From assembly GCA_022843095.1 (NCBI GenBank), contig JALHOH010000001.1:630001-662000 (forward strand): a stretch of DNA of 32,000 bases, in the 5' to 3' direction. Within the stretch, counting starts at the first letter, position 1. Every line of letters begins with the position of its first letter. The translations under genes were made by a program, and so were the position numbers. Source of the DNA: Candidatus Saccharimonadota bacterium. Lineage in GTDB: Bacteria; Patescibacteriota; Patescibacteriia; 2-12-FULL-60-25. Shown here one piece after another: positions 4,790 through 22,583 of this stretch. Under the pieces are notes generated by a model. It worked only from the letters and a program-made list of their open reading frames with translations, did no database searches and was not told the origin of the DNA.

Positions 4790-5536
4790 CTACGCGCCTA
4801 CCCGCACGAGGAGCAACCTCACTTCGTGCCCCGCGCCCGGGCTGTCCAACAGCACCTCGAGCCGCGGCAACGATGACGTTCGGAAGGTTCCCCATAGGCC
4901 GAACGAACCGTCGTAGGACTGAGTGAACGAGCGCGCTGATGGCGACTGGATCGCGAGGACGCCGGGCTTCCAGTACTGGTGGTCGAAGGTCAACCGCGCT
5001 GCGACGCCGCTGCCGCTCAAGTACTGCATCCCGATCACCGCATACGTTCCTGCGGCGAGTTCATCGACAGACGAGAGCTGCATCGACCACCACATGTCCT
5101 TCACGCTGACGAACGCCGAGGCAGTCATCCGCACCCAGAAGCGATCTCCTGCGGGCAGAGGCTCGAACTTTTCCTCGAGCCAGAGCAAGCCACGCGCAGC
5201 GTTCTGTCCAACCCCTGACGCCTCGAACGCAATCGGTTCGTCGCGCTGCAAGTGGATCACATCGTGCCCGAAGTACGCGACGTTGGGCGTTGATGGAATG
5301 GTGGTCCCGGTCACGATTGGATTCACGTTGATCGGATTCACGCCTCGCAAGATCGGCGACGTGACCTTGGCTATTTCAAGCGAACCGCCCATGCCAAACG
5401 CGCACACGAGGTCCATCGGGCAGGGGAGCACGATGCGATCATCGACCGAGTAGAGCTGAGTGTCCGTCGTCGGAGCCAAGCGCGCGAGCGCGCCGGGTCC
5501 CTGCGGGCCTACGAACGATGCGAGATGAAACGTCAC
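4790..5536 (-). CDS. beta-rich hypothetical protein (248 aa); last gene of the large operon and paralog of 21771-22583
   Basis: The GTG start at 5536 overlaps the upstream stop (GTGA at 5533-5536). It shares blocks with the first operon gene: M(P/T)FH, PMDL(I/V)xAF, (D/T)PNVAxF, RxWVR, LAAGTYAVIG, ARLTFD, YDGSxGxWGxF and PRLE. Confidence 0.8.
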   Translation of the reverse strand: MTFHLASFVGPQGPGALARLAPTTDTQLYSVDDRIVLPCPMDLVCAFGMGGSLEIAKVTSPILRGVNPINVNPIVTGTTIPSTPNVAYFGHDVIHLQRDEPIAFEASGVGQNAARGLLWLEEKFEPLPAGDRFWVRMTASAFVSVKDMWWSMQLSSVDELAAGTYAVIGMQYLSGSGVAARLTFDHQYWKPGVLAIQSPSARSFTQSYDGSFGLWGTFRTSSLPRLEVLLDSPGAGHEVRLLLVRVGA

Positions 5537-7281
5537 GGCGATTCCTCCGTTGCTGCTGGGACCAATTCGTCGGACGCGCTCGCTTGTGGAGCGCGAATGA
5601 ACTCGACGCTGTCGAACTTCAACCCTGAAGACCCTTCACCGGCACCAGGGCGCCGACGCCATTCGACCCACACCCGAGTCGCTCCGCTCAGCGTTCGTGT
5701 ACGCACGGGCACGCGCTGAACCGTCACGCCGACGCGAGGCAGTTCTTCCTCGCGAATGTGGAGCCGCTCACCGCTGGGCGCGCGAAGGATGCAACCGTCC
5801 GGGGCGAGCGCTCGCCGAGCGCCTGTCGCGCTGTCGAGCATCGCGCCGAGCGCGTACTCCACCTGCCCCTCGCCTCCCTCGATTCGTACCGGGATGAGGG
5901 GGAACCAATACGCTGGAACGTCCGTTTGGAGCACGTACTTGATTTGTGGGCCGGTTGCTGGTGGTGCGGGCGGCGGTGGAACACCCGCAGGAAGACGCGC
6001 GGTCGCTCGTTCGTGAGAGAGCCACGGCTCGCCGAGGCCATTCGGCATCGTGTGCTCGATCGCCCACGACATGTTGGCCATCTCGTCTCGAAGAAACCGC
6101 ACCTCTTCGATCGCCGCGCCGGACATTCGGCTCGGGTAGCCCGTGGGCAGCAAGAGAGTGGGCTCGACTCCACCGCTCTCCTGGTCGGTGAGCGACCACA
6201 TCGTCCAACGTTCGGCTCTGCGGGCGGGGTCGACCTGATCGCCGCGTTCGACGATCGTCGTGCCTCCGAATACGTCACGAACGCGGACCTGCTCGACACG
6301 AAGCGCTGTGCCCGCTCGTTGAACGCACGGCACCATGAACCAATCGTTCGACGCGGTGAGCGCGAAGTCGATGACCACGAGCCGCGCGACGTCGCGACTA
6401 TCGGCGACCACCGCGCCGAAGTCTGCTCCACCGTGCTCGAAGTCCCAGAAGCGAGGCTCGGGCATGCCGCGGAATCGGACGTGCGCTGGCATGACGATGC
6501 GCTTGGTTGTCTGCGCACCAGATCCCTCTGCGATCCGAGCGCTGACGTCGCACGAGTACCAGTCCACGTCTCCTTCGCGCGATGGCTGCACGCGCAGCGA
6601 CAGCCGGCTCTCGGCCGTGCGTACGGAGAGGGTTCCTTCCGCGCGAAGTCGCTCAGGCTGCCATGCCGCGGGGCGGTCCTTTGGCAGGTGTCCGAACACT
6701 TCCCTCGCGAAGCGTTCGAGCGCCTCGAAGGCTCGCTGTAGCGGCATCTCGGTGTCGGAAGTTGCGCCGATCGCCTCCGCGATCGCCTTCCATCCGCGAT
6801 CGAGCGCGAGCAACTCGAGACCGTCCGTGATCTTCTCTGCGCAAACGTGCTCGAAACGCACGGACGCTGTGTCTTCGCTTGGTGCGAGCGCCGCGATCGC
6901 AAACCGTTGCCGGACGCTCTCGACGAGCGCACGAGAGCCGCCCGCAGCGACGAGTTCGTCCTCGAAGATGCCGCCGAGCTCTGCGCGCGTTTCGAGGCTC
7001 TCGTCGAGCGCTGAGGCGCCCGCGAACAACGCTTCGAGCGGAGCATCGGCGTCGAGTCCATGCAGTGGACCACCGCGCGCGGACCATTCGCCGATGGGAG
7101 TCTCGCTCGTGTGCACCTCGATCCACGCAGGGCTCGCCGCGTCTTCGCCTTGGAACTCTCCCAGCTGCCACTGCCGCGTGAGGAGCCAAAGTGGATCGCG
7201 AATCTCTGCACGCAGCGAACGTACGATCGCGTCGGAGCGCACGATGGGTTCGAGTCGATTCCAATACGTGATGGAAGCCAT
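5533..7281 (-). CDS. large hypothetical protein (582 aa)
   Basis: I chose ATG at 7281 (MASITYWNRLEP...), 7 nt after the upstream stop at 7289. The 24-codon extension in the ORF track would overlap the preceding gene. G/C third-position bias is strong. Notable motifs are DPLWLLTRQWQLGEFQGEDAASP, RFWDFE and YWFPLIPVR. No known domain recognised. Confidence 0.8.
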   Translation of the reverse strand: MASITYWNRLEPIVRSDAIVRSLRAEIRDPLWLLTRQWQLGEFQGEDAASPAWIEVHTSETPIGEWSARGGPLHGLDADAPLEALFAGASALDESLETRAELGGIFEDELVAAGGSRALVESVRQRFAIAALAPSEDTASVRFEHVCAEKITDGLELLALDRGWKAIAEAIGATSDTEMPLQRAFEALERFAREVFGHLPKDRPAAWQPERLRAEGTLSVRTAESRLSLRVQPSREGDVDWYSCDVSARIAEGSGAQTTKRIVMPAHVRFRGMPEPRFWDFEHGGADFGAVVADSRDVARLVVIDFALTASNDWFMVPCVQRAGTALRVEQVRVRDVFGGTTIVERGDQVDPARRAERWTMWSLTDQESGGVEPTLLLPTGYPSRMSGAAIEEVRFLRDEMANMSWAIEHTMPNGLGEPWLSHERATARLPAGVPPPPAPPATGPQIKYVLQTDVPAYWFPLIPVRIEGGEGQVEYALGAMLDSATGARRALAPDGCILRAPSGERLHIREEELPRVGVTVQRVPVRTRTLSGATRVWVEWRRRPGAGEGSSGLKFDSVEFIRAPQASASDELVPAATEESP

Positions 7282-7288
7282 GGCCAGC

Positions 7289-10200
7289 TCAGCTCGGTTG
7301 TTCGACGGTGATCGCGTTGGTGAGCAAGGTCGAGACGACGTCTCCTGCGACATTGGCTGTCACGTACGCGGCAGGTAGGAACTGCGCGAAATGCACGAGC
7401 GTCTCTGGCTCGGTCGCTCGGATGCGAGCGTTGTCGAGCGTCTCGTGCAGCGTCGCGACGAGGTCATCGAAGCGCCAGCCGTCGAGCCTCGTTGGCACCG
7501 CGAGTAGAACCGTTTGCGGAGCCTCGGCCCCAGGATCGTCGTAGTGCGCGGCGATGCCTGTCGTCTCGTCAGGCAGAGGGATGGTTTCGACCCATTCGTC
7601 GAGGAGCAATCCGCTCCACTCGGTCGCTCCAGTTGCGCGCGCTCCGCACCCAACGAGCGCGACAGACACTCGCCCCGAGAGCAGGAGCGTTCGCTGGCGC
7701 TCGGGGTCCGTCGCAACACGGTTCGGAAGCGCTGCCCAGTAGTCGCCGGGCTCCGTTGGGAGTTGCACGATGGAGACAGGTGCGACCGCAACACTTGTGG
7801 CGCGTGCGTAGGTCGTCACCATGCGCAGCGCACGGAGCGGTTCCCGTACGCGCGTCGCCTGTGCTTGCCACACGCGGACCTGATCGGCGGTTGCTCCAAG
7901 GGACGGGGCGTGTTCGAGCGCTGTCTCGAGCGCCGCCTTTACGGCGCCTTCTGGGCTTATGCTCGAGACGAACAAAAAGTCCGCTCCGAAGATGGCACGG
8001 GCTTTTTCGCGCGCATTCGAAGCGCTTTCCGCCTTTTCGAGGCGCGATTGCAGCTCGGTAAGCGTGCTGCGCGCGCTCGTGATCAACGACGCATAGGGCG
8101 CATCGAGGTTTGCCGCTGGGAGATCGGGCAAAGCTCCAACAACGCCGTACCTCGATGCAAGTTGCAGCTGACGATGGAGGTCTTCGGCGTGCTCGATCGA
8201 CGCGGGAGGGACTCGAAGCGCGCGAACGAGGTTGCGAACGAGCGCGCCGAGCGCACGCTGCGCGTTCTCGGCGCGCTCTTTGTCACGCTCGGAGAATGTC
8301 ACCGCCGCAGGCGTTGGGTTGGCGAGCGCGCTCGGCGAGAGGTCTTCGACGCGAAGCGGACGGCTTCGCCCCAGCAACGCGCTCATCGCCCGCGCGGCCT
8401 CGAGTGTTTGTCCAAACGTTCGCGCGCTCGACGATGCGCCGGCGTCGTACCGCACGCTCTCGATTGAAACTCCTGGGTAGCGAGACAGCACGAACAGCCG
8501 CACCCGGCGATCGATCTCGCTTCCTTGCTTGGGATCAGGCTGCGTCGCTGCGAGCGCGACGACATCCAGCGCTCCGAGCGCGAGGTCCGACAATCGCACG
8601 TGCAGAGACGTCGCCTCGGCATCGCCTTTCGCAAACCGCACGACGCAGCTCGTGTGGTCGGGGTCGCCGAGCTGACGACGAGCCCACGCCTCGAGAAGCG
8701 GGTCACATACGGCGCGCGGTGTCGGCGCGACTGCGCCCCACGGTCCGACTTCATCTGGCGCTTGGTCGCCGAGCACGAGCACGACGCGATGGGTGAGCGT
8801 CCTGCCAGTACGGGGGTAACGCGCGACCTCGAGCTCGGGCGGCCTCGTCGCGCGCGCGAGCGCATCGAGGCTTGCCACCGAACGTCCGGCGTTGCCTCGG
8901 ATCAGCTGAAACACGGACTCGGCTGTGAGCGCGTCCGCCAGGGCGTCGGCGGTATCGTCTGCTTCGCGAGTGACCCTGAGCAACGCATCGGATTGCTCGG
9001 GCGAGAGCGGCAGCCGGAGCGAGCGCAGGAAGCTCTCCTTCGATACAGACTCATCCGCGCGGTACGCCCGAAGGAGCGCGAGGCCATCGACGACGTTTCG
9101 TGCCGCGATCTTCTCGGCGTCGAGGTCGGGGCGCGCGCGGGGATCTTTCTTGCGCGCCACCGGTGCGAATCGTTGCCTCAGCGCGGCGAATATCCTGTCG
9201 TTGGTTGGATCGATGTCGTGCAGTCCGCGCTCTACCTGGTAGCCGAGGAGCGCACCGAGGGGAATACCCGCGCGCATGTGGTCGAGGATCCACTCCGCCG
9301 TTCGTACGCGCGCGGAGGACAGATCGATCGTGTAGCGGCGCTGGGGTTCGCCTTCCCGCGTGACCCAAGCGTTCTTGAGGATGGCTCCCGCAGCCGCGTG
9401 GTCGAGCGAGGGGCCATGCACGAAACCGGCAGACCGACTTTGAATGTGCGCCGTCGTTCCGTCTGCGAGCACGCGCGTCCCGCCTGGGGGGCGACGTCGC
9501 AAGCGCTCGACCCAACCGAACGCTCCGACGTGCAAGCCCGTCGGGCGCGCGGCGCGCATCGCATCGAGCTTCGCCGTCGCAAGCGCTGTCATCCACGGAT
9601 CGAGCCGGTGCGACACCGCATCGAGCGTCTCTGTGAAGAGTCGTTCGAGCTCTGCCGCCGGCAGCGCCGCGAGGCGGCCCAGCGCGTGCGCGAATCCAAC
9701 GAGGTCTGCGCCGAGCGGATCGCGATCGATGAGGGTCTTCATCGTCGCTCCCTCGCCCCACATCGCGAGGTGGTCCCACACCGGCGGTCGCATCCGGCGG
9801 CCATACATGCTCGTTTGGATTAGCTCGTGCTCTTGGCGGTCCGCAGGGCTGACGCGACCCTCGCGCAGATTCACCTCGAACGTGATGCGCGCGATTTCCG
9901 AGAGTGTGCTGTGTCGAACGAGTCGCGCGAGCAGCGGCGCGTCGGTCCCGCGCAGGCTGCTCAGCGACGAGCGACGAAGCGCATCGATCGATGCATCGAT
10001 CGACTGCGAAAGGTAGTTGTCCTGCGTGCTGAGCGATGCCGTTTCGTTGTGACCCGCGCGCGCGACGAGACCGTGCGAGAAGCGATAGAGGCGCGGGTCG
10101 AACATCGAACGAAGCAGGCGCGGCTCCCAGCCAGCTCGATCGATCGTGGCGAGCCCTGCCCGTTGTGCGCCGTGTGGGTCGGAGATCCAGTGCGAGTAGG

Positions 10201-11863
10201 GGAGCCCCGAGTAGCGCAGCAGTTGTACGACGAACTCTGGACCAACGAGCGTTCGCGCTCCGACGGCCACGCTGCTCGCTTGCAGTCCGAGCACGCGCAT
10301 GAGGTCTGCGTCGGGATCCGAGCGCCCAGGTTGAATCGCTGGCGCGAGTGCGGACGCTGTTCGCCAGATCGGTCGTGCGCGTCGAACGGCATCTGCGAGC
10401 GAGCGAACGACCCACGGTGCGTCCGCGGGCACTTCGAGGGACTGCGTGCAGACAACTGGAAGCACGCCATACGGTGTGTTTCCGACGCGAAACGCGGAGA
10501 AGGGACCCCGCGCGCGCACCGTGGTCTCGAAGAGCGAACGAACGTCGAGGACCTCACTGGGGGTGAAGTACGGTGGTGTGCTTGCGTTCGATGGGTTCAC
10601 GAGCTGCTCGAGGAAGTGGCCGAGCGTGATCGGAAATAGAACGCGCGCCATGGCGCCAGCCGCAGCGTGCTCTTGCCGTTCGGCGCCCGAGACGCGGTCG
10701 AGCGCACCCGCCGGCAGTCCGAGCGCACGAGCGAGCCTCGCTCCGTCACCGTTTTCAGCATGGCGTGGCGCGACTTCAACCTCGAAGCTTTGCTCTCCCG
10801 AGGGATCGTCGGGCGGGAACGCTGTGCTCTTTCCTCCGGCATTCGTTGTTGCAGTGCCTTGCGCTACGAACGAGACGCCCCGCGTGAAGCGCTGGGCCAT
10901 GAGCAGTTCGTGCACTTCGCGTGCGACCGCCTCCGGGTCTCGACCCGTACGCACTCCAACGACCAGGATTCGGTCGAAGCCGATCGCGGGATCCCAGTCC
11001 TCTTCGCTCAGGTGCGGGATCGTCACTGCCATCCCGACCTGCTCGGCGCGCTCGAAGTCGATGGTCCAGAGCACGTCGCGCGACATCTCGATCGGCGCGA
11101 CGCCTCGGGCTTCAGCGTCGGCGGGAACGAGCTCTCGCGCAGCGTGTTGGCTTGGGGTTTCGGTCAGGGCGAGCGGTTGAAGGACTTGCGACGAGACGGC
11201 CCTGTGCACGAGGCGAGGCTCGTATTCATCTAGGCGCACCATCTCGGTGCCGCGGTACGCGAGAACGATCCAGCGATCCGGAAGCATCGACGCGGTGACC
11301 GCGCGTGTCCACGAGGCAGACTTCACGGTTCCGATGGGAGGAAAGATGGGCTCGTCAGGTTCCGTAGCGGCGGGCGGAGGGAGTGGCGCGCTCGAGCGCA
11401 GTCGACTCAGGTCCGTCATGCGTGTGCTCGACAGCACGTCTGCGATGCCGTGAGCGCGATCGCGAAAGTTGCTCGGCTTCGTCGCTCGAATCACAAAGGC
11501 CGCGCGCGGCATCGGGACGAGCCTCAGCAGTTCCGTCCATGCTCTTCGCTGCACCTCAGCGCTTTCGTTCCAACTCGCGCGCCAGAACGTGCACCCTGCG
11601 TCGTATTCGTCTCGGGTGAGCTCGGGTTCGTGCGAGTTCGCGAAGATCTCGTCCGGGTAGATGCGGACGCGGAGAACTCTCTCGGTGGAAAACCGACCGT
11701 TAGAGCGCTCCCCGAAGCGCGTCTCGATGCGAACAGGAAGTAGAAGGAGTGGAACGTCTGGCGCAAGATCGTTGACGTCGAACTCTGGCTTCGGGTTGAG
11801 GTCTGGACGAACGGTGGTGCTCGCGTCGATGTGCAGATTCGAGAGGTCTGTGGGGAGCGTCAC
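7289..11863 (-). CDS. giant hypothetical protein (1524 aa)
   Basis: The GTG start at 11863 overlaps the upstream TGA (GTGA at 11860-11863) and has GGAGGTG 7 nt upstream. The 73-codon N-terminal extension in the ORF track is Arg/Trp-rich out-of-frame shadow of the upstream gene. Motifs are PLLLLPVRIETRFG, LRVRIYPDEIF, LPDRWIVLAY, FRVGNTPYGVLPVV and HRLDPWMTALA. No NTPase, signal peptide or TM segment seen. Confidence 0.85.
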   Translation of the reverse strand: MTLPTDLSNLHIDASTTVRPDLNPKPEFDVNDLAPDVPLLLLPVRIETRFGERSNGRFSTERVLRVRIYPDEIFANSHEPELTRDEYDAGCTFWRASWNESAEVQRRAWTELLRLVPMPRAAFVIRATKPSNFRDRAHGIADVLSSTRMTDLSRLRSSAPLPPPAATEPDEPIFPPIGTVKSASWTRAVTASMLPDRWIVLAYRGTEMVRLDEYEPRLVHRAVSSQVLQPLALTETPSQHAARELVPADAEARGVAPIEMSRDVLWTIDFERAEQVGMAVTIPHLSEEDWDPAIGFDRILVVGVRTGRDPEAVAREVHELLMAQRFTRGVSFVAQGTATTNAGGKSTAFPPDDPSGEQSFEVEVAPRHAENGDGARLARALGLPAGALDRVSGAERQEHAAAGAMARVLFPITLGHFLEQLVNPSNASTPPYFTPSEVLDVRSLFETTVRARGPFSAFRVGNTPYGVLPVVCTQSLEVPADAPWVVRSLADAVRRARPIWRTASALAPAIQPGRSDPDADLMRVLGLQASSVAVGARTLVGPEFVVQLLRYSGLPYSHWISDPHGAQRAGLATIDRAGWEPRLLRSMFDPRLYRFSHGLVARAGHNETASLSTQDNYLSQSIDASIDALRRSSLSSLRGTDAPLLARLVRHSTLSEIARITFEVNLREGRVSPADRQEHELIQTSMYGRRMRPPVWDHLAMWGEGATMKTLIDRDPLGADLVGFAHALGRLAALPAAELERLFTETLDAVSHRLDPWMTALATAKLDAMRAARPTGLHVGAFGWVERLRRRPPGGTRVLADGTTAHIQSRSAGFVHGPSLDHAAAGAILKNAWVTREGEPQRRYTIDLSSARVRTAEWILDHMRAGIPLGALLGYQVERGLHDIDPTNDRIFAALRQRFAPVARKKDPRARPDLDAEKIAARNVVDGLALLRAYRADESVSKESFLRSLRLPLSPEQSDALLRVTREADDTADALADALTAESVFQLIRGNAGRSVASLDALARATRPPELEVARYPRTGRTLTHRVVLVLGDQAPDEVGPWGAVAPTPRAVCDPLLEAWARRQLGDPDHTSCVVRFAKGDAEATSLHVRLSDLALGALDVVALAATQPDPKQGSEIDRRVRLFVLSRYPGVSIESVRYDAGASSSARTFGQTLEAARAMSALLGRSRPLRVEDLSPSALANPTPAAVTFSERDKERAENAQRALGALVRNLVRALRVPPASIEHAEDLHRQLQLASRYGVVGALPDLPAANLDAPYASLITSARSTLTELQSRLEKAESASNAREKARAIFGADFLFVSSISPEGAVKAALETALEHAPSLGATADQVRVWQAQATRVREPLRALRMVTTYARATSVAVAPVSIVQLPTEPGDYWAALPNRVATDPERQRTLLLSGRVSVALVGCGARATGATEWSGLLLDEWVETIPLPDETTGIAAHYDDPGAEAPQTVLLAVPTRLDGWRFDDLVATLHETLDNARIRATEPETLVHFAQFLPAAYVTANVAGDVVSTLLTNAITVEQPS

Positions 11864-14800: not shown

Positions 14801-14871
14801 TCGCGACGAATGATCTGCGTAGCGAGCCCCTGGCGAATCCAAGACATGAAGGTGAACGCGTCGCGGCTCAT
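11860..14871 (-). CDS. giant hypothetical protein (1003 aa)
   Basis: The ATG at 14871 overlaps the upstream stop (ATGA at 14868-14871). Motifs are FFPLIEFEDADLPWRYTP, AYLWAHVH, YTAFLVPTFERGRRAG and NRAFVEAYMVGLSHEMARELLWHEFPTDQRSTYFRQFW. No known domain recognised. Confidence 0.85.
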   Translation of the reverse strand: MSRDAFTFMSWIRQGLATQIIRREGEAVSGAPAERAEVTVGLTVNETEVTSTLRLFGPEDVRGINSDAIVRHWPARDVFDAEPNFFPLIEFEDADLPWRYTPASPKRREGSTQDLQLTPWLCLVVLSDEEIKSRRTSGSNAPLAAIQAAVSDLPELTDAYLWAHVHGKVDLASSNDAQVRERLRTTPDAFVSRLLCPRRLKPKTSYTAFLVPTFERGRRAGTGEALDSAVDALRFAWQRGTGGGDAALVWLPVYFEWRFGTGVTGDFEELVRRIEPRPLPPEVGSRSVDARTPGLGVPGAVSGEQPDLRVAGALQPLGSTNPLWASIEHIPAFDDVLSELLSLPARELEHSTSEPRLVVPPLYGQWLAAANELPRSDGWFRELNRNPLLRIAAGLATEVVQKNQTELLAGAWRQFEGMTAINNTMRFAQLARHGAKSIFVRHLLPAPNDLFVQLAAPAFGHLLWSASPTRTLTAVTAGTRIEGIIDPAWRRLTRARGALDRRMGPRVPNLFDRVNRREIRAGGGRPLLVNANTPWTSGARAANTPAERALIEDGEKKAATTAFGTALLVGITAFEGEQSATLPRKRAWSRLIEEQKSGATVRDELVDRVLDEMPGNRAFVPVSLEDLAAGRVPTDADATAAGAAEFREAVGDFFREVQLQLDASPSLPAAPTAGEIAGLLSRELNPEETITRAVRFRLRLSADVEWSPEDLLDPLFVAPAFEQPMWVPLRDLSQDWILPGLEHVPNNSVALLQTNRAFVEAYMVGLSHEMARELLWHEFPTDQRSTYFRQFWNPASFAKIDPPPGWSDADAKELLKDITAIDRWEKDSALGGHSPRGASSSVGETRLVLLVRGEILRRYPNATIYATRERATREEPHYPLFRGELPPDVVFVGFDLTVDTLFSGGWYFVFEEPAIEARFGLDESAAPLRSWGDLSWPAVGVAVGSYFRGSIERDGARSELVLEDRTPAWPAGQATSAAFANITHQKPVRILIPAEQLLAEVRS

Positions 14872-17800
14872 CGTCCCTCTCCTCCGGTCGCCTCGAACGC
14901 GGGTGCCACTTGAAACAGCGAGGCTCCGCCAGACTCTTCCGCGAGCAACTGCACGAGCGCGCTCGCAGCGCCCGCGGTCTCGGGGGTGGCTCGACTGGCT
15001 GGTCGAAGTGAATCGCGGCTCGTTGCCACGAAGAACTCGTCCGCGAGCACGACGCGCGGAGGGGTGCCGAGCGCGGGGGTGAATCGATCCGATCCCTGGA
15101 TCCGCAATCCGCGGAGCGATGAAGCAGCGTTGCGCGATCCTGCGACAAGCTGCTCGCTCGGGAGAGACGTTGTGGTGGGCGTTTCGTCTCCACCGAGCTT
15201 GATCTGCTCATAGAGGCCAGCTCCTTGTGTCTTGGGACCGACCGAGATGGCGTCGCTCGCGACGAGCGCTCCAGCATCCATCTTTTCGAAGGAGGGGCGG
15301 CTCAGTTTTTCGGCGTCCGACATCTGCTCGAACTGCGCTGCGGCGAACATCTCGTGCATAGGGCGATGGGTCGCGGGTGCGCTACCCACGCGAGCCGCGC
15401 GAACGTCGTAGCGGCCAGGGCCACCAATTCGCCCTTCGGCGAAGCGGTCAAGCTTGCGATTGAGCGGCACGATCGTTTGCCGAACTGCAGGCACACCGAC
15501 TGGGTCGAAGAGCGGGTTCTCCGAGCTCGAGGCGTCAGACAGCGATACTGGGCGGGCGACGCCGGCCACGAGTTCGCCCTTCCAGCTCGGTGCAGCACGC
15601 AAGGCTTCGAGAAGGCGATCCGTCGGGTCGACCGAGGGGAGCTCTTCGAGCGAAGGCTCGCCGCCGAACTTCACGTCGACGTCGACTGCGGCCTCGATGA
15701 AGAGCACCGACAGTCGAGCTTTGCCCGTGACGTGCCAAGGCTTCGGTCCCTTGATCGTGCCCTCGAGGTGGATCGCGAGGAGCTTTGCGCCGAAGACTGT
15801 GACGGACAGGCTTGCGAGAAAGTCGATGCGAAACGAGAACGGCGAGAAGATGACGAGTGCGTCGAACGCGAGCATCCCGTCGATCGCCGCGACCTCGACG
15901 CGGACCTGCACCTCGACCCGTGCCCCGAGCTGCAGGGTGTTCGACGTGATCGCGAAGTACGACTCGATGCGCAGGCGCACGAGGCCACCCGGAGCCGTGT
16001 ACCCGAGGGTTAGCCGACGAAGGGTAGGGAAGTTGGAGGGCGCCTGAAAGTGTGGATTGAAGCCGCCAATGGAGAGCAGAAAGTACGGCTGTTCGCCCCA
16101 GCCGAGGCGGAAGGCAAGATCGCCGAAGAGTTCGAGTGGGCCGATGCGGGAGTCGTTAAGAGAGGCGTCGACTGAGACTTCCTTTTGTCCTGGGTCTACG
16201 ATTCCCAAGAGCCGCATATGTAGTTCGACAACAGCCGTACTGCGGTTAGGAAGGAGCATCTCCGCTGCGCCCGCAAGAACGAACCGGAGTGGAAGAGGCA
16301 ACTCAAGTACCAGCGCGACCACGATCTCAGCGATAGGAATTGCTGGCGGTCCGAAGCTGATCTGAACTATCGGTCCGACTACGTATCGTTCGTCTGATGG
16401 AGCAAACACCTGTTGGAGCGAAGCGCTCGACGACGTACTTGATGGTAGAAGGGGTGATGAGTTCGCTGCCATGAGCAGTGCGCGAAGCCTGGGCAGAACG
16501 AATGTGCGATGAATTCCCACCAACCCGCCGACGCCACTCAACGAGAATCCCATGCCGATTGGAATTCCAGGAAAGGATGCGAACAAAGACGCAACTATAG
16601 AGTAGCTGCCATTGGAGCGAACAAGCATTGACGCAGATGCCGCGATGCCAAGCTGACGGATGGTCAGCGACATTGAACCGGAGTAGCTTCCGCCGGAACC
16701 GACAGACAATTCGCCACCACCTGTTGCGATCGGCGAGTTTAACTGCAAGCCAACACTAGAGATACTCGCGAACTCGGCACTTAGATCCGAACTCCCGAGT
16801 GAGCCCCGTGAATCCATCCACTCAAGAGATGCACCAAACCCGCGAGCGGTTAAACGTGCAAATCCGACGGCGACCGACGCGTCGACACGAGCAGCGAGAC
16901 TGAGTGCAGCAGGATTGCTCGCTGCGCGAGCGCTGAGCGCAATTCCGTCAATTGCCACGCCGCCGAAACGTGCACGAACTTGCAGGAAGACCTCGAGGGA
17001 GGCTGCGGCGTTCACAAGGAGTCCCGTGGTTCGGGAGTAACTCATGTTGAGGGAAGTGTTGAACGAAACCCTGCGACCAAGAAGTGCTCTTAGGAGCGGA
17101 CTGCCAGATTCAGGATCGAGACTAAGTTCGACGGATGTCGCCAATTCGGCAAACGGAGAGAATGGCTGCGTGCTCAACGCCTCAAAGCCCCCTCCAACGG
17201 TTACGGACTGAACGCGGAAGTCGACACCCGGAGCCAAACGAAGGACCGGCTGTTCGCTGAGTGGCCCTTCAATGAAAATGCCGCAACGTACGCGTGACTC
17301 GAGCCCGCTGAATCGAACCTCCGGCAACAAGTGAACTACGCCAGTGGTCGACTGAGCACCGCAGCGCAGTTGGTAGTTACCAAACGGAATTACAAACTCT
17401 CCTCCACCCGCAATCTCAACAGAAGCGAAGAGCTCCGTGCCAAGGACTCGGACTCGGAATAGAGTTGATAGAGCCGCTTCCGAATTGACTGCGATACGAA
17501 TGGCAGACGACAGATCGCTCGCGTCATCGTCGTACTGTACAAATGTGCTGAGGCGAGCTGATGGGAATAGAGTCGGCAGTGCCGTGCACACTCGATATAG
17601 CCACGACGCCAGCATTCGCGCCTCTGAACGGCGGTCTAGTGACATTGCGTCTGCGAGCGTGCGCCAATCCCAGTGCTGGAACTGACTGAGTGGAATTAGT
17701 CGAAAACGGAACCGAGCGGTCGATCCTGCAGCACTTTCGGGGGTACCCGCGATTGTCTCGCGACGAACAAGAGCAACTGCCCCAAGCAACCAGAGTAGGG

Positions 17801-18152
17801 TCCAAAGCCGTGGACTACGTGACGCAAGAGCCGTGATCAAAAGTTGTTCCAGCAACTCAAGTAGAGTGATTCGAACATACGGCAAGTCGCGCGGGTTCGC
17901 AAACAACCTCGAGACCGCTGCCAACATTGAGATTATGTTGTATAGTGTTGCTGGTTGAGTTCCCTCTTCACCTCGCCGAATGCTACTCACGACAACCTGA
18001 AGAGTTTGAATGCAGACGGTCTGTTGCTCCGATGTCAGTACTCCAAACGTCAACGAACGCTGCAGTTGAACGCGGCAACGATCGACGTTCAACTCCGTGG
18101 AGAGTAGCGGTGACAACAACGATTCGATAAAATCTTGCGCTGTGTCAGACAT
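14868..18152 (-). CDS. giant hypothetical protein (1094 aa), beta-rich; possible DUF6603-like region (unverified recollection)
   Basis: ATG at 18152 has GAGGA 6 nt upstream. Motifs are GFSLSGVGGLVGIHRTF and LLSIGGFNPHFQAP, followed by long alternating-polarity beta-like segments (RVEVQVRVEVAAIDGMLAFDALVIFSPFSFRIDFLASLSVTVFG). The N-terminal two-thirds or so is encoded by about 50-55% GC DNA and the C-terminal third by about 70% GC DNA. Confidence 0.85.
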   Translation of the reverse strand: MSDTAQDFIESLLSPLLSTELNVDRCRVQLQRSLTFGVLTSEQQTVCIQTLQVVVSSIRRGEEGTQPATLYNIISMLAAVSRLFANPRDLPYVRITLLELLEQLLITALASRSPRLWTLLWLLGAVALVRRETIAGTPESAAGSTARFRFRLIPLSQFQHWDWRTLADAMSLDRRSEARMLASWLYRVCTALPTLFPSARLSTFVQYDDDASDLSSAIRIAVNSEAALSTLFRVRVLGTELFASVEIAGGGEFVIPFGNYQLRCGAQSTTGVVHLLPEVRFSGLESRVRCGIFIEGPLSEQPVLRLAPGVDFRVQSVTVGGGFEALSTQPFSPFAELATSVELSLDPESGSPLLRALLGRRVSFNTSLNMSYSRTTGLLVNAAASLEVFLQVRARFGGVAIDGIALSARAASNPAALSLAARVDASVAVGFARLTARGFGASLEWMDSRGSLGSSDLSAEFASISSVGLQLNSPIATGGGELSVGSGGSYSGSMSLTIRQLGIAASASMLVRSNGSYSIVASLFASFPGIPIGMGFSLSGVGGLVGIHRTFVLPRLRALLMAANSSPLLPSSTSSSASLQQVFAPSDERYVVGPIVQISFGPPAIPIAEIVVALVLELPLPLRFVLAGAAEMLLPNRSTAVVELHMRLLGIVDPGQKEVSVDASLNDSRIGPLELFGDLAFRLGWGEQPYFLLSIGGFNPHFQAPSNFPTLRRLTLGYTAPGGLVRLRIESYFAITSNTLQLGARVEVQVRVEVAAIDGMLAFDALVIFSPFSFRIDFLASLSVTVFGAKLLAIHLEGTIKGPKPWHVTGKARLSVLFIEAAVDVDVKFGGEPSLEELPSVDPTDRLLEALRAAPSWKGELVAGVARPVSLSDASSSENPLFDPVGVPAVRQTIVPLNRKLDRFAEGRIGGPGRYDVRAARVGSAPATHRPMHEMFAAAQFEQMSDAEKLSRPSFEKMDAGALVASDAISVGPKTQGAGLYEQIKLGGDETPTTTSLPSEQLVAGSRNAASSLRGLRIQGSDRFTPALGTPPRVVLADEFFVATSRDSLRPASRATPETAGAASALVQLLAEESGGASLFQVAPAFEATGGEGR

Positions 18153-18188
18153 CTGTGGTCCTCGAGATTGTAAGGGTGGTTCACTGAG

Positions 18189-20621
18189 CTATCGGTGTCT
18201 GCTAGGTAGTCGTTGCATTGGGAAAATTGGATCTGCTGTGTTGAGCGCTACTTCAAACAGCGTTCGGAACTGAGCAGGCTCATTTCGACCATCTCGAATC
18301 CAGAATAGCTCATGTCGGACGACAGAGTTGCCGTTTCGCTGACTGAACGAGAGTCGTCCGACATTGTTTAGTCCAACGATGATCGTCCCATCAGTTGCAC
18401 TGCGTTGGTCCTGTCGGGCGCCCCGAATCATGTCTGAACGCCACCACCAGTCATAGTAACCTTGGATTGCGTCGTCACCGGGCAGCGAAGTGCCCGGAAC
18501 AAACGTCTCATCAAACACCACACACCCAGGTGAGTCGGCAGTCGGAAGTAGGAGCCGAGTATACCCTACGAAATTTTCGAGTGCGTAGACACCTAGAGTT
18601 AGTTGTAGTTGATGCAAGATACGAGACATTGCTGAGTTGATCCCAACCGTCAGGCGCGGGTGAGGGATACTCACTCGAGATTCAATCGTTGGAAACTGTG
18701 ATGGCGTGTGTGTGTTTAGGAGGCCTCGACGAAAGAAGCCAAAGGGAATGTGATTGTTGTGGAGGCTGATTGTGTTGGCATCTTGCTTTAGAGCACCACT
18801 CGACACGCACTGCACAAAGAGGCACGAGTTTAGCGTTGTGGATGACGGTTCGCCTCCAACTCGGTAGTACTGAAAGAGCGCTCGGGCGGTGTAGGCAAAG
18901 TGAATATCTCCGCTCAGCAAAACCACAGGAGCATTGTCTGATCGCTGAGCAAGTCCGAGAAATAACCTATAAATACCGACATCGTCTAGTTCCCAGCCTT
19001 CCGACAAGTCATTGACGTGAATTTCCGATGGGGAAAGCAATCGCAGCCCAGTACGCTTTATCTCTACCATTGCCGGATGCGTGAGCACAGGCTGTGAGAC
19101 TGCGACGATCGTTAGCGCGGTACGACCCCCGTCTCGTCGTCTCGATACTTGGGATCGCGCTGAATCAGGATCAAGAAGAGCTAGGTCAATCTCTCGTGAG
19201 GGCGTGGGCGCGCCGTCAACTCGAGCGTCGCGAAAAGTTCTTCGCGTACGACAATCCAGTCCGAGAAGTTCGTAGTTCCATTCTGGTTCGGTCACCGAAA
19301 AATGCCACTGCGAAGCAACGTCTTCACGTGCGGGCACCAGCTTCCCAGATGATGCGTAGATCGAATGGTTTGGCATACCAAGCCTTGACACCCACGCGGA
19401 ACGTCCCGCAATCGGGTAACCTGCGGCTGCCCATGTTTGCACTACTTGGAGTAGCGAGCCGGCTGGGCCAGAACCAGCAAAAAGCGAGGGAACATTGCCG
19501 ATGTGCTGACAGAGGAGATACGCAAGCAATGCGTTCTCGGTATAGCGTTGAGCTAGCTCACGCCGACGCGAATCTGATGACATCATCCCCCCGGCTAGCC
19601 AGGCAGAATCGATGTTCCAGTCGTCAGTCACTTCGTGGTCGTCAAACAGCATTAGTGTGGAAACGTTGGCAAGAACTCGACGTACGCGCGTCGTGGACGT
19701 CGCAAAATTCATTGCTCTGTCAATCTCGCCTTGGAACTCAGCTCGACGACGCGCTTCCCTCTCAGGACCTCCCCAAACTGGGCTCCCGTGGGCAGGCCAG
19801 GGAAATTCGTCGCGCTCAGGCCACAAGACGGGCGACCACGCCAGAATATACAGGACCAGATACTCTGTAAAGCGAAGTGCGTGTCCGCTAAGCGAGTCTG
19901 ACGTGATACCACAATCACGTGCGAACTGAGCACGGCGATCGAAGCGAAAATCCTCGAAAACTACCCCGTCACGAGCGTCCCCAATGAATGGTTCGTTTGA
20001 GCCAGCAAGAATCCGTGCAACATGGTAAGCGTAGCTGCCGACTACAGGGCTGACGCTGTCGGCATAGATCTGATCGCCAGTTAGCCAGAGCAAGTGTGGT
20101 CGTTCAGACAGTAGCGAATCCCCTCTTGAGGACATCCATGAATCGAATTCTCCGAGCGCGTCAGCACCGACACCAGTCGTCGCGCGACACGAAGCGTGAA
20201 TAAGGCGAAGATTGCGATAGTCTGATGGAGGAACCAAAAACGACGGCAGGGTCGAACCATTGTATCCGAGTGTTGGTAACGACGCTCCATGTGCCGCGAG
20301 GACGCCTGGTGAATTGAGTCGATGAACTACTGTATCCTCCGTGCGTAGAACAACATCGTAGTACACAAGTCCGTTTGTCGCTGCCAAGCTTGAGATATCT
20401 GTTACCGTGACCAAGCAGAGGTGTAGGTGGCGAGCAATGGCGATTGAAGCGCGCGTTCCGGTAACGGACCGACCGCTTTGACTTGCTTCGACAGTGCACT
20501 CAACAGATCGGGAAGTAATGAGCCAAATCGACGCGCTGCGGGGAGTGACCCGCCGCACGATCGGGCCAACAAGGATGAGCGGAAGCTGTGAAATTCGCGA
20601 TGAGAAATCTCGAAACGTCAT
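18189..20621 (-). CDS. PhoD-like metallophosphatase family protein (810 aa), no signal peptide, long C-terminal extension
   Basis: The ATG overlaps the upstream stop (ATGA at 20618-20621). PhoD-type motifs occur in order: LRLIHASCRAT (SC motif), LLWLTGDQIYAD, LFDDHEVTDDW and VVLLSGDIHFAY. The N-terminus MTFRDFSSRISQLPLILVGPIVRRVTP has no Tat or Sec signal. Confidence 0.7.
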   Translation of the reverse strand: MTFRDFSSRISQLPLILVGPIVRRVTPRSASIWLITSRSVECTVEASQSGRSVTGTRASIAIARHLHLCLVTVTDISSLAATNGLVYYDVVLRTEDTVVHRLNSPGVLAAHGASLPTLGYNGSTLPSFLVPPSDYRNLRLIHASCRATTGVGADALGEFDSWMSSRGDSLLSERPHLLWLTGDQIYADSVSPVVGSYAYHVARILAGSNEPFIGDARDGVVFEDFRFDRRAQFARDCGITSDSLSGHALRFTEYLVLYILAWSPVLWPERDEFPWPAHGSPVWGGPEREARRRAEFQGEIDRAMNFATSTTRVRRVLANVSTLMLFDDHEVTDDWNIDSAWLAGGMMSSDSRRRELAQRYTENALLAYLLCQHIGNVPSLFAGSGPAGSLLQVVQTWAAAGYPIAGRSAWVSRLGMPNHSIYASSGKLVPAREDVASQWHFSVTEPEWNYELLGLDCRTRRTFRDARVDGAPTPSREIDLALLDPDSARSQVSRRRDGGRTALTIVAVSQPVLTHPAMVEIKRTGLRLLSPSEIHVNDLSEGWELDDVGIYRLFLGLAQRSDNAPVVLLSGDIHFAYTARALFQYYRVGGEPSSTTLNSCLFVQCVSSGALKQDANTISLHNNHIPFGFFRRGLLNTHTPSQFPTIESRVSIPHPRLTVGINSAMSRILHQLQLTLGVYALENFVGYTRLLLPTADSPGCVVFDETFVPGTSLPGDDAIQGYYDWWWRSDMIRGARQDQRSATDGTIIVGLNNVGRLSFSQRNGNSVVRHELFWIRDGRNEPAQFRTLFEVALNTADPIFPMQRLPSRHR

Positions 20622-21163
20622 GTGTGGTGCTCGGATGTTGAGGAGTCGCTAAGCCATCGGAATTTTTCACGAGCTGTGACCAAGATCGTCGAACCTACAA
20701 CCAACCACGCGACGAACCCGAGTACGACATTTTCGACATAGATCCACTCGATCGAATCTCCGACGATCGTTGCCGGGTGACGCGAATACGACGACGAGAG
20801 CACTAGCAGCCATTCCGCCAATGGTAGTACGATCGCAACTATTGTGGCAATCGCAATGGCGGAGCTAAGTTTGAGTTGGGTCTTGGGTTGATTCTTGCTT
20901 TTCGTGGCGCAAGCTAACCTAGAAACAAGCAGGTACACCAACGCAGCAATCTGTAGGCACAATGACCATTCTTGTGAGTAGCCATAGATTGGGCCAGTGC
21001 CGATTGTTGCTCCGCTAGGGTGCCAGTGGCTCGCCGCCTTTCTCCATTGGTATACTCCCAACATGAGCGAAGTAGCAGCAACGGAGACATCGAGCGTCAT
21101 GGAGACGAGACGAAGATTTCGGCGTTGAGTGGCAACAAGATGTTCGGATGGTTTCAATGTCAT
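20618..21163 (-). CDS. small integral membrane protein (181 aa, about 4 TM segments)
   Basis: ATG at 21163 has GGAGG 5 nt upstream. The hydrophobic segments are VSVAATSLMLGVY, LCLQIAALVYLLVSRLA, SSAIAIATIVAIVLPLAEWLLVL and VVLGFVAWLVVGSTILV. Confidence 0.75.
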   Translation of the reverse strand: MTLKPSEHLVATQRRNLRLVSMTLDVSVAATSLMLGVYQWRKAASHWHPSGATIGTGPIYGYSQEWSLCLQIAALVYLLVSRLACATKSKNQPKTQLKLSSAIAIATIVAIVLPLAEWLLVLSSSYSRHPATIVGDSIEWIYVENVVLGFVAWLVVGSTILVTAREKFRWLSDSSTSEHHT

Positions 21164-21202
21164 CCAGACCTCCGTTTAGGCGTCTCGATATTGCTTGATT
21201 GA

Positions 21203-21463
21203 TCAACTTAATCTTGCCCATCGCGCTTCGGTGTTGCTTCGCTGCTCACGATCCTCTATAGAGGCGAGATCGAGCCGATGCGGGCGACGCACCGTTGTTG
21301 GGTTGCGTTCGAGATCGAATTCGGCGTGGAAGTTTCGATCGAATGGAGCCGGCCGAAACTCGCGCGGAGGATATGTTCGAACAAAGGATTTGCGCACAGT
21401 AGTTTCTCGTCTAGGCAAGATCACTTTCTCGGCATACTCGTACGCTGATCTCTTCGTCGTCAT
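21203..21463 (-). CDS. small basic hypothetical protein (86 aa)
   Basis: ATG at 21463 is preceded by GGAGTAACAAGG, 5 nt after the upstream TAA. The product is Arg/Glu-rich (MTTKRSAYEYAEKVILPRRETTVRKSF...). The upstream 21 codons of the ORF-track entry overlap the previous gene. The call rests mainly on position and the SD site. Confidence 0.5.
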   Translation of the reverse strand: MTTKRSAYEYAEKVILPRRETTVRKSFVRTYPPREFRPAPFDRNFHAEFDLERNPTTVRRPHRLDLASIEDREQRSNTEARWARLS

Positions 21464-21468
21464 CCTTG

Positions 21469-21774
21469 TTACTCCATCACCTCGACAACGCCGGCTGTCA
21501 GCGGTCCCGCGGCGATCGCGCTCCACGGCTTCTCCACGGCATCGCCGTGCAACTCTCGCGTGATCGTGAGGAACGCTCCTCCGGCCACGAGCACCATGCC
21601 ACCGCTGATACCGACCGAGGATTCCGTGCTGACCGTGTAGGCCCCGGCAACAGGTGGGGAGAAGACAAGCGCGACGCGCTGCGTGCTGGCTCCGACCACT
21701 TGTGAGGCGGAGGTGTCAACGGCAATTGGCCTGACTCGGCTGCTTCGTTTTGGGGCGCCGCGCTCGCTCATCAT
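21469..21774 (-). CDS. small hypothetical protein (101 aa)
   Basis: The ATGATG start at 21774 overlaps the stop of the first operon gene (ATGA at 21771-21774). Third positions are strongly G/C. The product is MMSERGAPKRSS...VSTESSVGISGGMVLVAGGAFLTITRELHGDAVEKPW. The longer ORF-track version (to 22107) overlaps the upstream gene out of frame. Confidence 0.65.
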   Translation of the reverse strand: MMSERGAPKRSSRVRPIAVDTSASQVVGASTQRVALVFSPPVAGAYTVSTESSVGISGGMVLVAGGAFLTITRELHGDAVEKPWSAIAAGPLTAGVVEVME

Positions 21775-22583
21775 CCCACCTGCGCCTTTCCGTTGTCCTT
21801 CGATCCGAGGTAGACGACCTGCAGCGCGCCTGTGAAGTTGATGATGGTCGCCGAGGTCACCGCGAACATCTCGAGTCGAGGGGGCGAATACGATTCGAAT
21901 CGCCCCCACTCCCCCAACGACCCGTCGTAGAACACATCGGCGGTACGTTGTCCGGCTGCTTCTGTGCCGATTGTTCCGGGCCGCAGCACTTGATTGTCGA
22001 ACGTCAGGCGGGCGGAGAGCACGCCTGCTCCTTGCAGTTCCAGCCCAATGACGGCGTATGTGCCGGCTGCCAGGGTATCCTCGAACGTAAAGGTCGCGCT
22101 CTGCCACTGGAACGGATTGGTGGCGACGCTCGCTTGGGTGCCGGAGAACCGCACCCAGTACCGCGGCCCAGTGGGGGCAGCGACGTACTTGTCCTGCAAC
22201 ATCAGGAACGCGTACGTGGTGAGGCCTGGTCCGGTCCCTGCGGCCTCGACCTGGATCTCTTCCTGACGTCCGAGAGTGATGTTGGAAAACACAGCGACGT
22301 TCGGGTCTGTGGGCACAACAAACGCTGGCGCAGTACCCAGGCTCAGTGCGGTCGGTACGACCTGAATGTTTGCGATCTTGCGTACCTGTGGTGTGCTGAT
22401 CCGGGCCGCAACAATGGGAGTCTCCCCGATCACGAACGCACCGATGAGATCCATCGGCATCGTCGTGAGCAGGCGATTGTTCGTGATCTGCATCTGGTTC
22501 TCGTTCAGCCCAGCGGCAGAGAGATTGGCGTATGCGTTGGGGGCTCCTGCCGAGCCAGAGTATGCGCCGACGTGAAATGGCAT
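21771..22583 (-). CDS. beta-rich hypothetical protein (270 aa); first gene of the large operon and paralog of 4790-5536
   Basis: ATG at 22583 (MPFHVGAYSG...) has GGGAGG 7 nt upstream. This N-terminus aligns with MTFHLASFVG of the paralog, so I reject the TTG start at 22637 given in the ORF track. Confidence 0.8.
   Translation of the reverse strand: MPFHVGAYSGSAGAPNAYANLSAAGLNENQMQITNNRLLTTMPMDLIGAFVIGETPIVAARISTPQVRKIANIQVVPTALSLGTAPAFVVPTDPNVAVFSNITLGRQEEIQVEAAGTGPGLTTYAFLMLQDKYVAAPTGPRYWVRFSGTQASVATNPFQWQSATFTFEDTLAAGTYAVIGLELQGAGVLSARLTFDNQVLRPGTIGTEAAGQRTADVFYDGSLGEWGRFESYSPPRLEMFAVTSATIINFTGALQVVYLGSKDNGKAQVG

Follow-up and report, generated by a model that had tools for sequence, protein, structure and literature searches.

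Which kind of system is encoded by a run of tightly coupled genes whose largest products resemble no characterised proteins? The question is raised by an operon in the window analysed here, a stretch of 32,000 nucleotides (nt) of contig JALHOH010000001.1 (positions 630,001 to 662,000) assigned to a Candidatus Saccharimonadota bacterium. The operon is composed of ten co-directional open reading frames (ORFs) on the minus strand, g1 to g10, which occupy window positions 4790-22583 and code for 5,899 amino acids (aa) in total. The original prediction, made from the sequence alone, had proposed that the ten products are subunits of one undescribed assembly with an enzymatic and a membrane component. 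Comparison with other genomes leads to a different partition. Genes g6 to g9 are a core that recurs in bacteria and archaea, while the enzyme gene g5 lies in a cassette that is replaced by other DNA in close relatives. The operon is best explained as one copy of a module that is widespread, self-contained and mobile by horizontal transfer.

A conserved core of four genes

The core genes are g6 (14868-18152; 1094 aa), g7 (11860-14871; 1003 aa), g8 (7289-11863; 1524 aa), whose GTG start codon lies within the GTGA overlap with g7, and g9 (5533-7281; 582 aa), whose ORF can be extended to position 7353. Their arrangement was compared in 80 loci, the counts of gene order being based on those that extend far enough. 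In 66 of 67 loci g6 immediately precedes g7, and in 64 of 64 g7 is followed by g8 and then by g9. The order g6-g7-g8-g9 recurs in 64-66 independent loci from more than 10 phyla, which is far above chance. The tight gene coupling noticed in the present copy is conserved as well, with a 4-nt overlap of g6 and g7 also annotated in Salinigranum and Streptomyces. Co-occurrence across genomes, a test suggested earlier for the four giant proteins, for the paralogous products of g1 and g10 and for the phosphatase-like product of g5, is found for the four giants; the paralog pair is limited to one clade and the phosphatase is replaced in other loci. The ten products do not behave as one fixed assembly, since only g6 to g9 occur together across genomes.

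Relatives of g7 are present in at least 579 species, as found by a scan of one genome per species. A search of a 90%-identity database gave 641 matches at E <= 0.001 among 8,000 candidates scored, the names shown being all 'hypothetical protein', and the family comprises 4,947 cluster representatives at 50% identity (E <= 1e-3). The host phyla are Myxococcota, Acidobacteriota, Gemmatimonadota, Chloroflexota, Bacteroidota, Planctomycetota, Verrucomicrobiota, Actinomycetota, Bacillota, Cyanobacteria and Pseudomonadota, with genera that include Streptomyces, Nocardia, Neobacillus, Leptolyngbya, Nitrosomonas, Ruegeria, Bradyrhizobium and Rhizobium. The core is also carried by four haloarchaeal megaplasmids; in Salinigranum marinum the gene order is PhoD-like, DUF6603, g7-like, g8-like and g9-like. 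Some copies reside on plasmids and some adjoin integrases or recombinases. Flanking genes differ between loci, and a search of 142 flanking proteins, which gave 184 Pfam families, identified no conserved neighbour, secretion system, ATPase or lysis cassette.

A phage origin of the module was considered and rejected. No relatives were found in 2.9 million viral contigs, and the only g7 relative in a 'phage' record comes from an unverified contig of 75% GC, probably of bacterial origin. This record (MT835531.1, 'UNVERIFIED: Bacteriophage sp.'; locus L095), of 40 kilobases (kb) and obtained from human faeces, has relatives of g7, g8 and g9 at one end (positions 30109-39162) and has the appearance of a bacterial contig of high GC that was misclassified as phage. 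Another atypical copy is found in plasmid p_3 of Rhizobium lusitanum (L089; positions 6939-19532), where g7 and g8 each appear to be split in two (358 + 731 aa and 946 + 597 aa). The genes that precede this copy code for pentapeptide-repeat and nucleotidyltransferase proteins, and a gene for a CVNH lectin follows it. This copy may be decayed or rearranged.

The core proteins

Only g6 has a Pfam family among the core proteins. Its residues 393-947 match positions 2-501 of the 502-position DUF6603 profile (PF20248) with 316.2 bits (cut-off 27; E = 4.7e-94), and plasmid homologues of g6 are also named DUF6603 by the annotation pipeline PGAP. Because of this match the g6 family is not wholly uncharacterised. 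The original prediction had recognised a PhoD-like phosphatase and a protein with four transmembrane (TM) segments as the sole identifiable parts of the operon; both are confirmed, by a Pfam PhoD match and by four hydrophobic segments respectively, but g6 has to be added to them. No literature was found on DUF6603, PF20248 or DUF7800, the latter being a domain of g5.

None of the Pfam models matches g7, g8 or g9. Profile searches of the PDB with alignments of g6, g7, g8, g9 and g1/g10 yielded nothing, or noise at E >= 0.03; in these searches g7 had no match, and the best hit of g8 (E = 0.08) is at noise level. The AlphaFold2 (AF2) model of g7, with a predicted local distance difference test score (pLDDT) of 75.8, is rich in beta structure in its N-terminal third, helical in the middle and alpha/beta at the C-terminus, and Foldseek retrieved no match for it (best E = 0.46 in the PDB and 0.14 in BFVD). 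The most conserved of the four core proteins is g9, with a mean column identity of 48%. Every one of its 823 homologues is named hypothetical. Its AF2 model has a pLDDT of 62.8, and its three stretches of low confidence (residues 1-48, 266-313 and 399-445; pLDDT <50) include those motifs that are most conserved in the family. This unusual feature would be compatible with interface regions that become folded only within a complex. Foldseek found no match of this model in the PDB (best E = 0.4). The folds of g7 and g9 are left unassigned because the best Foldseek E-values were only 0.14-0.46.

Comparison of the core families and g1/g10 with each other by hhalign indicates that they are unrelated, except for a short helical module shared between g8 (residues 866-972) and g9 (probability 71%, E = 4e-5). 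No signal peptide or TM segment was found in any core protein; the three hydrophobic stretches of g6 in the Kyte-Doolittle scan resemble buried strands. Additional domains are present in some homologues. Haloarchaeal g8 proteins have an inserted halo_surf_dom (BGTF) surface domain and the Salinigranum g9 protein carries two lamin-tail domains in its C-terminus, both assignments being confirmed with hidden Markov models (HMMs). One Streptomyces g7 is annotated as VCBS-repeat-containing, which is an annotator name only, and a Neobacillus g8 homologue matches FG-GAP_3 with 25.8 bits, below the cut-off of 26.9.

A cassette exchanged between close relatives

The nearest relative is Myxococcales MAG-91 (contigs L004 and L057). 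Its nucleotide identity to the window is 97% over positions 4736-14353, 85% over 14239-16234 and 95% over 21469-24751. Between them, at 16234-21469, there is no similarity. This segment is the cassette, which contains g3, g4, g5 and the 5' part of g6. Protein identities to MAG-91 are 94% for g2, 88% for the C-terminal part of g6, 28% for its N-terminal part and 43% for g5. The base composition of the cassette is foreign, with a GC content of 0.51-0.57 versus ~0.64-0.67 elsewhere and a GC content at third codon positions (GC3) of 0.51-0.56 versus 0.73-0.79 in the remaining operon and its neighbours. The transition occurs within g6, whose GC3 is 0.54 in the N-terminal part versus 0.74 in the C-terminal part.

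In a second relative, L087 (93% identity in g7), similarity extends over 12466-16178 and 21470-22614, with the same two breakpoints; unrelated genes for proteins of 591 and 657 aa replace g4 and g5. In a third relative (JGI 3300059473) the cassette position is occupied by genes for proteins of 290 and 501 aa. The cassette is replaced in relatives whose g7 is 87-93% identical, and DNA similarity to relatives stops at 21469-21470, precisely where g2 ends. No tRNAs, Rfam matches or notable repeats were found to bound the operon or the cassette. The alignments and the base composition point to a recent recombination event that exchanged the cassette, with breakpoints at the end of g2 and midway through g6. 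The PhoD-like enzyme and the four-TM protein, originally regarded as integral components, do not have this status, as the cassette is swapped even among relatives that are 95-97% identical on its flanks. The modular organization of g6 and the foreign base composition of the 5' third of the operon had escaped the original prediction.

Modularity of g6 and co-variation with the enzyme

The DUF6603 protein g6 is composed of a variable N-terminal part (aa 1 to ~650; positions 16203-18152), which travels with the enzyme, and of a constant C-terminal part (aa ~651-1094; 14868-16202), which is the core member. When loci are compared in pairs (40 loci, with g7 identity controlled), the identity of g6 aa 1-400 is ~9 points higher for those that have the same upstream enzyme family. 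None of 2000 label permutations reached the observed value. The difference declines along g6, reaching zero by ~aa 550, and the remainder of the protein shows none.

The same division of g6 is displayed by locus L052 (positions 624-9935), which has two full-length g6 genes in tandem, with a phospholipase D-like (PLD) gene between them, upstream of one g7-g8-g9 set. The two proteins are 20-32% identical in their first ~500 aa and 90-100% identical in the later part (C-terminal 700 aa), which suggests that one core can serve several adaptor-enzyme pairs. A similar duplication of g6 was observed in L027.

Loci whose enzyme is an S8 subtilase and loci whose enzyme is trypsin-like provide a further comparison. 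The catalytic folds of these two enzymes are unrelated and the proteins have in common only a C-terminal domain of ~100 aa with the tag motif [RE][FYH]GS..L..D[IL]..[YFH]. The g6 N-termini of S8 loci are 27.6% identical to those of trypsin loci versus 20.1% to those of other loci. Because the N-termini of the two groups resemble each other, the g6 N-terminus tracks the shared tag and not the catalytic domain. Its co-variation with enzyme type makes the N-terminal part of g6 a probable payload-specific adaptor.

The enzyme slot

In the present copy the payload enzyme is g5 (18189-20621; 810 aa), a PhoD-like metallophosphoesterase. Pfam PhoD (PF09423) matches with 29.1 bits over aa 309-362 only and DUF7800 with 30.4 bits, the cut-off being 27 for both. 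The motifs GDQIYAD, DDHEVTDDW and SGDxH are invariant across 8 homologues of g5, and g5 resembles the PhoD structure 2yeq only weakly (E = 0.05). By these features g5 is assigned as a divergent member of the PhoD-like family. Its homologues occupy the same slot at 9 loci, including Salinigranum (E = 5e-59). PhoD of Bacillus subtilis carries a twin-arginine export signal. No twin-arginine or signal-like stretch is found in g5 or its homologues, whose N-terminus is the DUF7800 beta-sandwich (..LPLILxGPIxRRV..).

The gene that directly precedes g6 differs from locus to locus, the usual coupling being a spacing of -46 to ~+100 nt. Among 76 ORFs at this position the Pfam matches are Peptidase_M64 (7 ORFs), trypsin-like/Nal1 (7), PhoD (6), PLD (4), S8 subtilase (3), tyrosinase (2), beta-lactamase-like (2), M10 (2) and M14 (1). 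Other loci have a galactose/glyoxal-oxidase-like payload or a peptidoglycan-binding one, the latter by annotator name only. PDB sequence searches for three payload families without an assigned identity gave nothing usable. No tag common to every payload family was seen. The families represented (proteases, phospholipase-D-like enzymes, phosphatases, copper oxidases) normally act outside the cell. In a crude hydropathy test, 46 of 47 payloads were devoid of a signal-peptide-like N-terminus.

The payload gene is occasionally found 3' of g9 (an S8 peptidase) instead of 5' of g6. An actinobacterial variant of the module, observed in a Nocardia plasmid (L094; 7594-21441), in a Streptomyces plasmid (L085; 7647-20878) and in L077 (20866-22761), has a short DUF6603 protein of 767-782 aa, apparently without the N-terminal adaptor part, and the extra gene, coding for a 1236-aa S8 peptidase or a WD40 protein, comes after g9 and not before g6. 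A PhoD-like gene is also positioned after g9 in L077.

The remaining genes of the operon

The gene layout had been described exactly, with the ten ORFs joined by five 4-nt overlaps and by gaps of 5, 39, 36 and 7 nt. From g1 to g10 the junctions are -4, 5, 39, -4, 36, -4, -4, 7 and -4 nt; the overlaps are GTGA at 5533 and 11860 and ATGA at 14868, 20618 and 21771. Ribosome-binding sites of the GGAG type precede g1, g4, g7, g8 and g10, and a GAGGA sequence precedes g6. Promoter and terminator scans of the operon gave a background level of hits and are uninformative on transcription. A motif scan of the ten products detected neither Walker A motifs, whose absence had been noted before, nor HExxH motifs. 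In the Kyte-Doolittle scan g4 has four hydrophobic segments (residues 19-37, 66-87, 95-126 and 138-165) and g2 has one above threshold (53-72); no segment was found in genes other than g2, g4 and g6. One of the ten genes, g3 (21203-21463; 86 aa), is doubtful. This ORF of the cassette has no homologue in any related locus, no protein family match and a flat GC content in its three codon positions (GC1, GC2 and GC3 of 0.57, 0.52 and 0.52), and is probably not a gene.

The operon is opened by g1 (21771-22583; 270 aa), a beta-rich protein whose ORF can be extended to a TTG codon at 22637, and closed by g10 (4790-5536; 248 aa). The two proteins are paralogs, as had been proposed, and are 38% identical (E = 1e-44). 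Their family comprises only 11 protein clusters from a small myxobacterial clade, which speaks against the pair being part of a fixed assembly. No Pfam, NCBIfam, PHROG, PADLOC or PDB match was obtained for g1. The ATGA overlap at the end of g1 leads into g2 (21469-21774; 101 aa), the gene that borders the swappable cassette on its upstream side. In L057, L087 and JGI 3300059473 a gene for ~100 aa likewise comes after a g1-like gene, with a 100-101-aa product at the g2 position in the latter two. A g1-like gene is found also in a Haliangium locus (L033) and is absent from the remaining ~75 loci. Gene g10 is likewise the last gene in L004, L086 and JGI 3300059473, and the similarity to MAG-91 ends at 4736, just beyond the g10 stop codon. 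This distribution identifies g1, g2 and g10 as accessory genes of a single myxobacterial clade. A role of g1/g10 as capsid or shell protein was also considered and dropped, because it is unsupported and the family is too narrow.

Within the cassette, g4 (20618-21163; 181 aa) ends in a 4-nt overlap with the start of g5. No homologue of g4 was found in other loci. The diverged PhoD cassette of MAG-91 codes for a 174-aa TM protein directly upstream of the enzyme, in the position that g4 has here. The product of g4 may be an immunity protein, a holin-like protein or a membrane partner of the enzyme. Small co-oriented TM proteins, drawn from different families, were seen in only 9 of 48 loci. This leaves a universal holin or immunity partner unsupported.

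Genes flanking the operon

The window also contains, ~2.9 kb upstream of the operon, two genes on the minus strand with a 4-nt overlap. They code for an SbcC-like protein with AAA_27/SMC_N matches (25452-28976; 1174 aa) and for an SbcD-like calcineurin-type phosphoesterase (28973-30397; 474 aa), probably an ordinary repair pair of the SbcCD/YhaNO type. On the other side, 605 nt downstream of g10, a minus-strand gene (2020-4185) codes for a 721-aa FG-GAP/VCBS-repeat protein with weak matches to Stig1 and TcdB_toxin_midN, both below their cut-offs. Repeats of the VCBS/FG-GAP type are also seen in core proteins elsewhere (the Streptomyces g7 by annotation and the Neobacillus g8 below threshold). 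The 721-aa gene is placed outside the shared unit because the synteny with MAG-91 ends at 4736. Three further ORFs have no Pfam match, namely 214-1593 (plus strand; 459 aa), 22957-23451 (plus strand; 164 aa), which starts with a lipoprotein-like signal (..LVCVFVGCAS..), and 24341-25303 (minus strand; 320 aa). They may be ordinary myxobacterial orphan genes.

Comparison with known systems

The ten proteins were compared to the Pfam, NCBIfam, PADLOC and PHROGs collections, and only DUF6603 in g6 and PhoD/DUF7800 in g5 were found. Searches of PADLOC-DB v2 at E <= 0.1 assigned none of the ten to a defence family, a result that covers catalogued systems only. The view that no characterised system would be matched is upheld by the HMM libraries for all ten proteins and by AF2 models with Foldseek for g7 and g9. 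The organization of the module nevertheless recalls several known systems.

Tc toxins of Photorhabdus, Yersinia and Serratia are the first of these. They share with the present module adjacent giant genes, the lack of signal peptides and ATPase, and a conserved machine combined with a variable enzymatic payload; the small membrane protein encoded in the same operon here is a further likeness. Release of Tc complexes does not involve a classical secretion system. The payload here is a separate gene with an adaptor, unlike the hypervariable C-terminus of TcC enclosed in a cocoon. No Tc family (VRP1/TcA, SpvB, TcdB_toxin_midN/midC, RHS_repeat) was found in the ten proteins with Pfam at E <= 0.1, and the models of g7 and g9 matched no Tc chain of the PDB in Foldseek.

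Polymorphic toxins (Rhs, contact-dependent inhibition (CDI) and LXG systems) are also characterised by cassettes that recombine between near-identical strains, with a sharp break within a large conserved protein, and by extra modules in tandem, as seen here in L052. The swap of a variable module with a sharp breakpoint in a conserved carrier was found in the present system too. However, the variable part of the large protein is here its N-terminus and not a toxin, the enzyme is a separate full-size protein of exoenzyme type, and there is neither a regular immunity gene nor a fused toxin domain. Pfam detected no Rhs, filamentous-haemagglutinin or LXG domain in the ten proteins.

Extracellular contractile injection systems (eCIS), type VI secretion systems (T6SS) and tailocins resemble the module in being mobile multi-gene units of environmental bacteria and haloarchaea with variable payload genes at one end. 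Contractile injection systems and tailocins are released in a manner independent of envelope type. No sheath, tube, baseplate, spike or AAA+ ATPase family was detected with Pfam, NCBIfam and PHROGs, and g7 has no viral fold match in BFVD.

In encapsulin loci, as here, a cargo gene of variable type is found directly upstream of the structural gene, and the C-terminal tag shared within one payload family of the present system may be a docking signal. The core of the present system has four proteins of ~4,200 aa in total versus a single shell protein of ~280 aa, and its payloads are degradative enzymes versus ferritin-like or peroxidase cargo. Pfam revealed no HK97-fold, encapsulin or bacterial microcompartment (BMC) shell family, and the models of g7 and g9 had no HK97-fold match in Foldseek.

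The umbrella (Umb) particles of Streptomyces are multi-protein assemblies made in the cytoplasm, with polymorphic toxic parts and decorations of lectin or adhesion type. The present system is also carried by Streptomyces plasmids, and both would be decorated particles of cytoplasmic origin. No architecture of the UmbA/UmbB/UmbC type (trypsin-lectin spokes, ALF repeats, coiled-coil stalk with C-terminal toxin) was seen in the module, though no direct comparison was made, and its gene sizes and families are unlike those of Umb.

On this evidence the system would lie outside all known kinds and be undescribed, because the membership tests failed on the defining components of known systems. The original proposal of an undescribed multi-protein system agrees with these comparisons, which gave no match to Tc toxins, eCIS/T6SS, phage tails, RHS proteins or PADLOC families and no sequence relatives of the core in the PDB.

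Function of the module

The favoured interpretation, whose probability we place a little short of even, is that the module encodes a payload-carrying complex that acts outside the cell. The constant part, composed of the C-terminal half of g6, g7, g8 and g9, would most likely form one large complex. The variable part would be the enzyme gene and the N-terminal half of g6, which move as a cassette, the N-terminal half recognising its own enzyme and doing so in some families through the shared C-terminal tag. In the present copy the enzyme would be the PhoD-like phosphoesterase, accompanied by the small four-TM protein. The complex would package or carry the enzyme and release or present it outside the cytoplasm of the producer, against prey, competitors or a host, in a logic that resembles a toxin complex with exchangeable payloads. 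Carriage out of the cytoplasm is suggested by payload families that are normally extracellular, yet have no signal peptides. The surface- or adhesion-type domains grafted on core proteins (archaeal g8 and g9, and the Streptomyces g7 by annotation) are a hint of extracellular action, as are the payload annotated as peptidoglycan-binding and the lack of a conserved secretion system or ATPase in the flanks. The earlier idea of a delivery-type complex with one enzyme comes close to the comparative data, except that the membrane and enzyme genes are not fixed parts.

Several observations weigh against extracellular delivery. The statistics of co-variation between g6 and its payload derive from pairs of loci that are phylogenetically non-independent, and the co-variation could result from co-transfer of neighbouring DNA rather than from binding. 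The surface-type domains come from three lineages only, among which the VCBS and peptidoglycan-binding assignments are annotator names and FG-GAP_3 is below threshold. No pore, membrane-insertion or receptor-binding fold is recognisable in the core proteins, of which g7 and g9 were modelled. No consistent immunity gene accompanies the payloads, the small TM proteins being of differing families. The module is found in monoderms, diderms and archaea without an envelope-spanning part, which fits an intracellular role equally well. Neighbours of the kind seen in defence islands are also present in the flanks, with TIR_2 in two proteins and CHAT-TPR in one.

The last two observations lead to the alternative that survives best, an uncatalogued system of intracellular conflict (anti-phage defence or abortive infection), in which the core would be a sensor and scaffold that holds a destructive enzyme inactive until infection, and adaptor and enzyme would be swapped in an arms race. 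The sporadic distribution over many phyla and archaea, the copies on plasmids or beside integrases and recombinases, and the variable flanks with their TIR_2 and CHAT-TPR proteins are in line with it. So are the absence of a secretion component and of signal peptides, the occurrence across envelope types and the swapping of effectors next to conserved partners, which is typical of defence systems. However, none of the ten proteins has a PADLOC match, and the searches revealed no domain of an NTPase, nuclease, helicase or known sensor. Tyrosinase, glyoxal-oxidase-like, M64, M10, M14 and annotated peptidoglycan-binding payloads would be unusual defence effectors, the surface-type grafts do not suit this role, and well-sampled enteric or pseudomonad genomes are not carriers among the matches listed. 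Intracellular conflict is considered unlikely, without being far-fetched.

A cytoplasmic compartment for sequestration or storage is improbable. Here the core would be a shell that confines a hazardous enzyme, in the manner of an encapsulin or microcompartment, for the metabolism or stress response of the producer. A cargo gene immediately 5' of a conserved structural gene, one payload family with a shared C-terminal tag, payloads without signal peptides and, among these, oxidases that yield reactive products would all be expected of such a compartment. However, Pfam detected no HK97-fold, encapsulin or BMC shell family, and proteases, PLD enzymes and phosphoesterases have no obvious confined metabolic role. 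The rapid payload swaps between near-identical strains point to conflict and not to housekeeping, and surface-type grafts are unfit for a closed cytoplasmic shell.

Less probable still, and largely refuted by the comparative data, is a literal ten-subunit assembly of fixed stoichiometry with the PhoD-like and four-TM proteins as integral parts and the paralogs as its two ends: five 4-nt overlaps and short gaps do join all ten genes, and three or four myxobacterial contigs that are related show the same frame of g1, g2, cassette and g6-g10, but only g6 to g9 co-occur across genomes, g4 and g5 give way to unrelated genes where g7 is still 87-93% identical, g1 and g10 are confined to their 11 protein clusters and g3 is probably no gene.

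A payload-carrying complex with extracellular action thus remains the favoured interpretation. In its most far-reaching form, put forward more tentatively, g6-g9 would represent an unknown class of machine common to bacteria and archaea, that uses the exchangeable adaptor (the N-terminal part of g6) to take up exoenzymes without signal peptides and delivers them outside the cell or into other cells. This would be a new route of export or toxin delivery, unrelated to Tc toxins, contractile injection systems and the numbered secretion systems, with a payload that could perhaps be reprogrammed by cassette swap.

Biological significance

If the favoured interpretation is correct, what had been ~17 kb of 'hypothetical proteins' can be recognised as a module of wide distribution, and three large families without a Pfam model, together with DUF6603, receive names and a testable role. 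The pairing of adaptor and tag predicts binding, cargo swapping and co-purification, and many cultured carriers exist. Should this pairing be transferable, the system might, more speculatively, be made to carry chosen enzymes. For the bacteria and archaea that harbour it, the module would be a new means of turning proteases, lipases, phosphatases and oxidases on neighbours, prey, hosts or phage.

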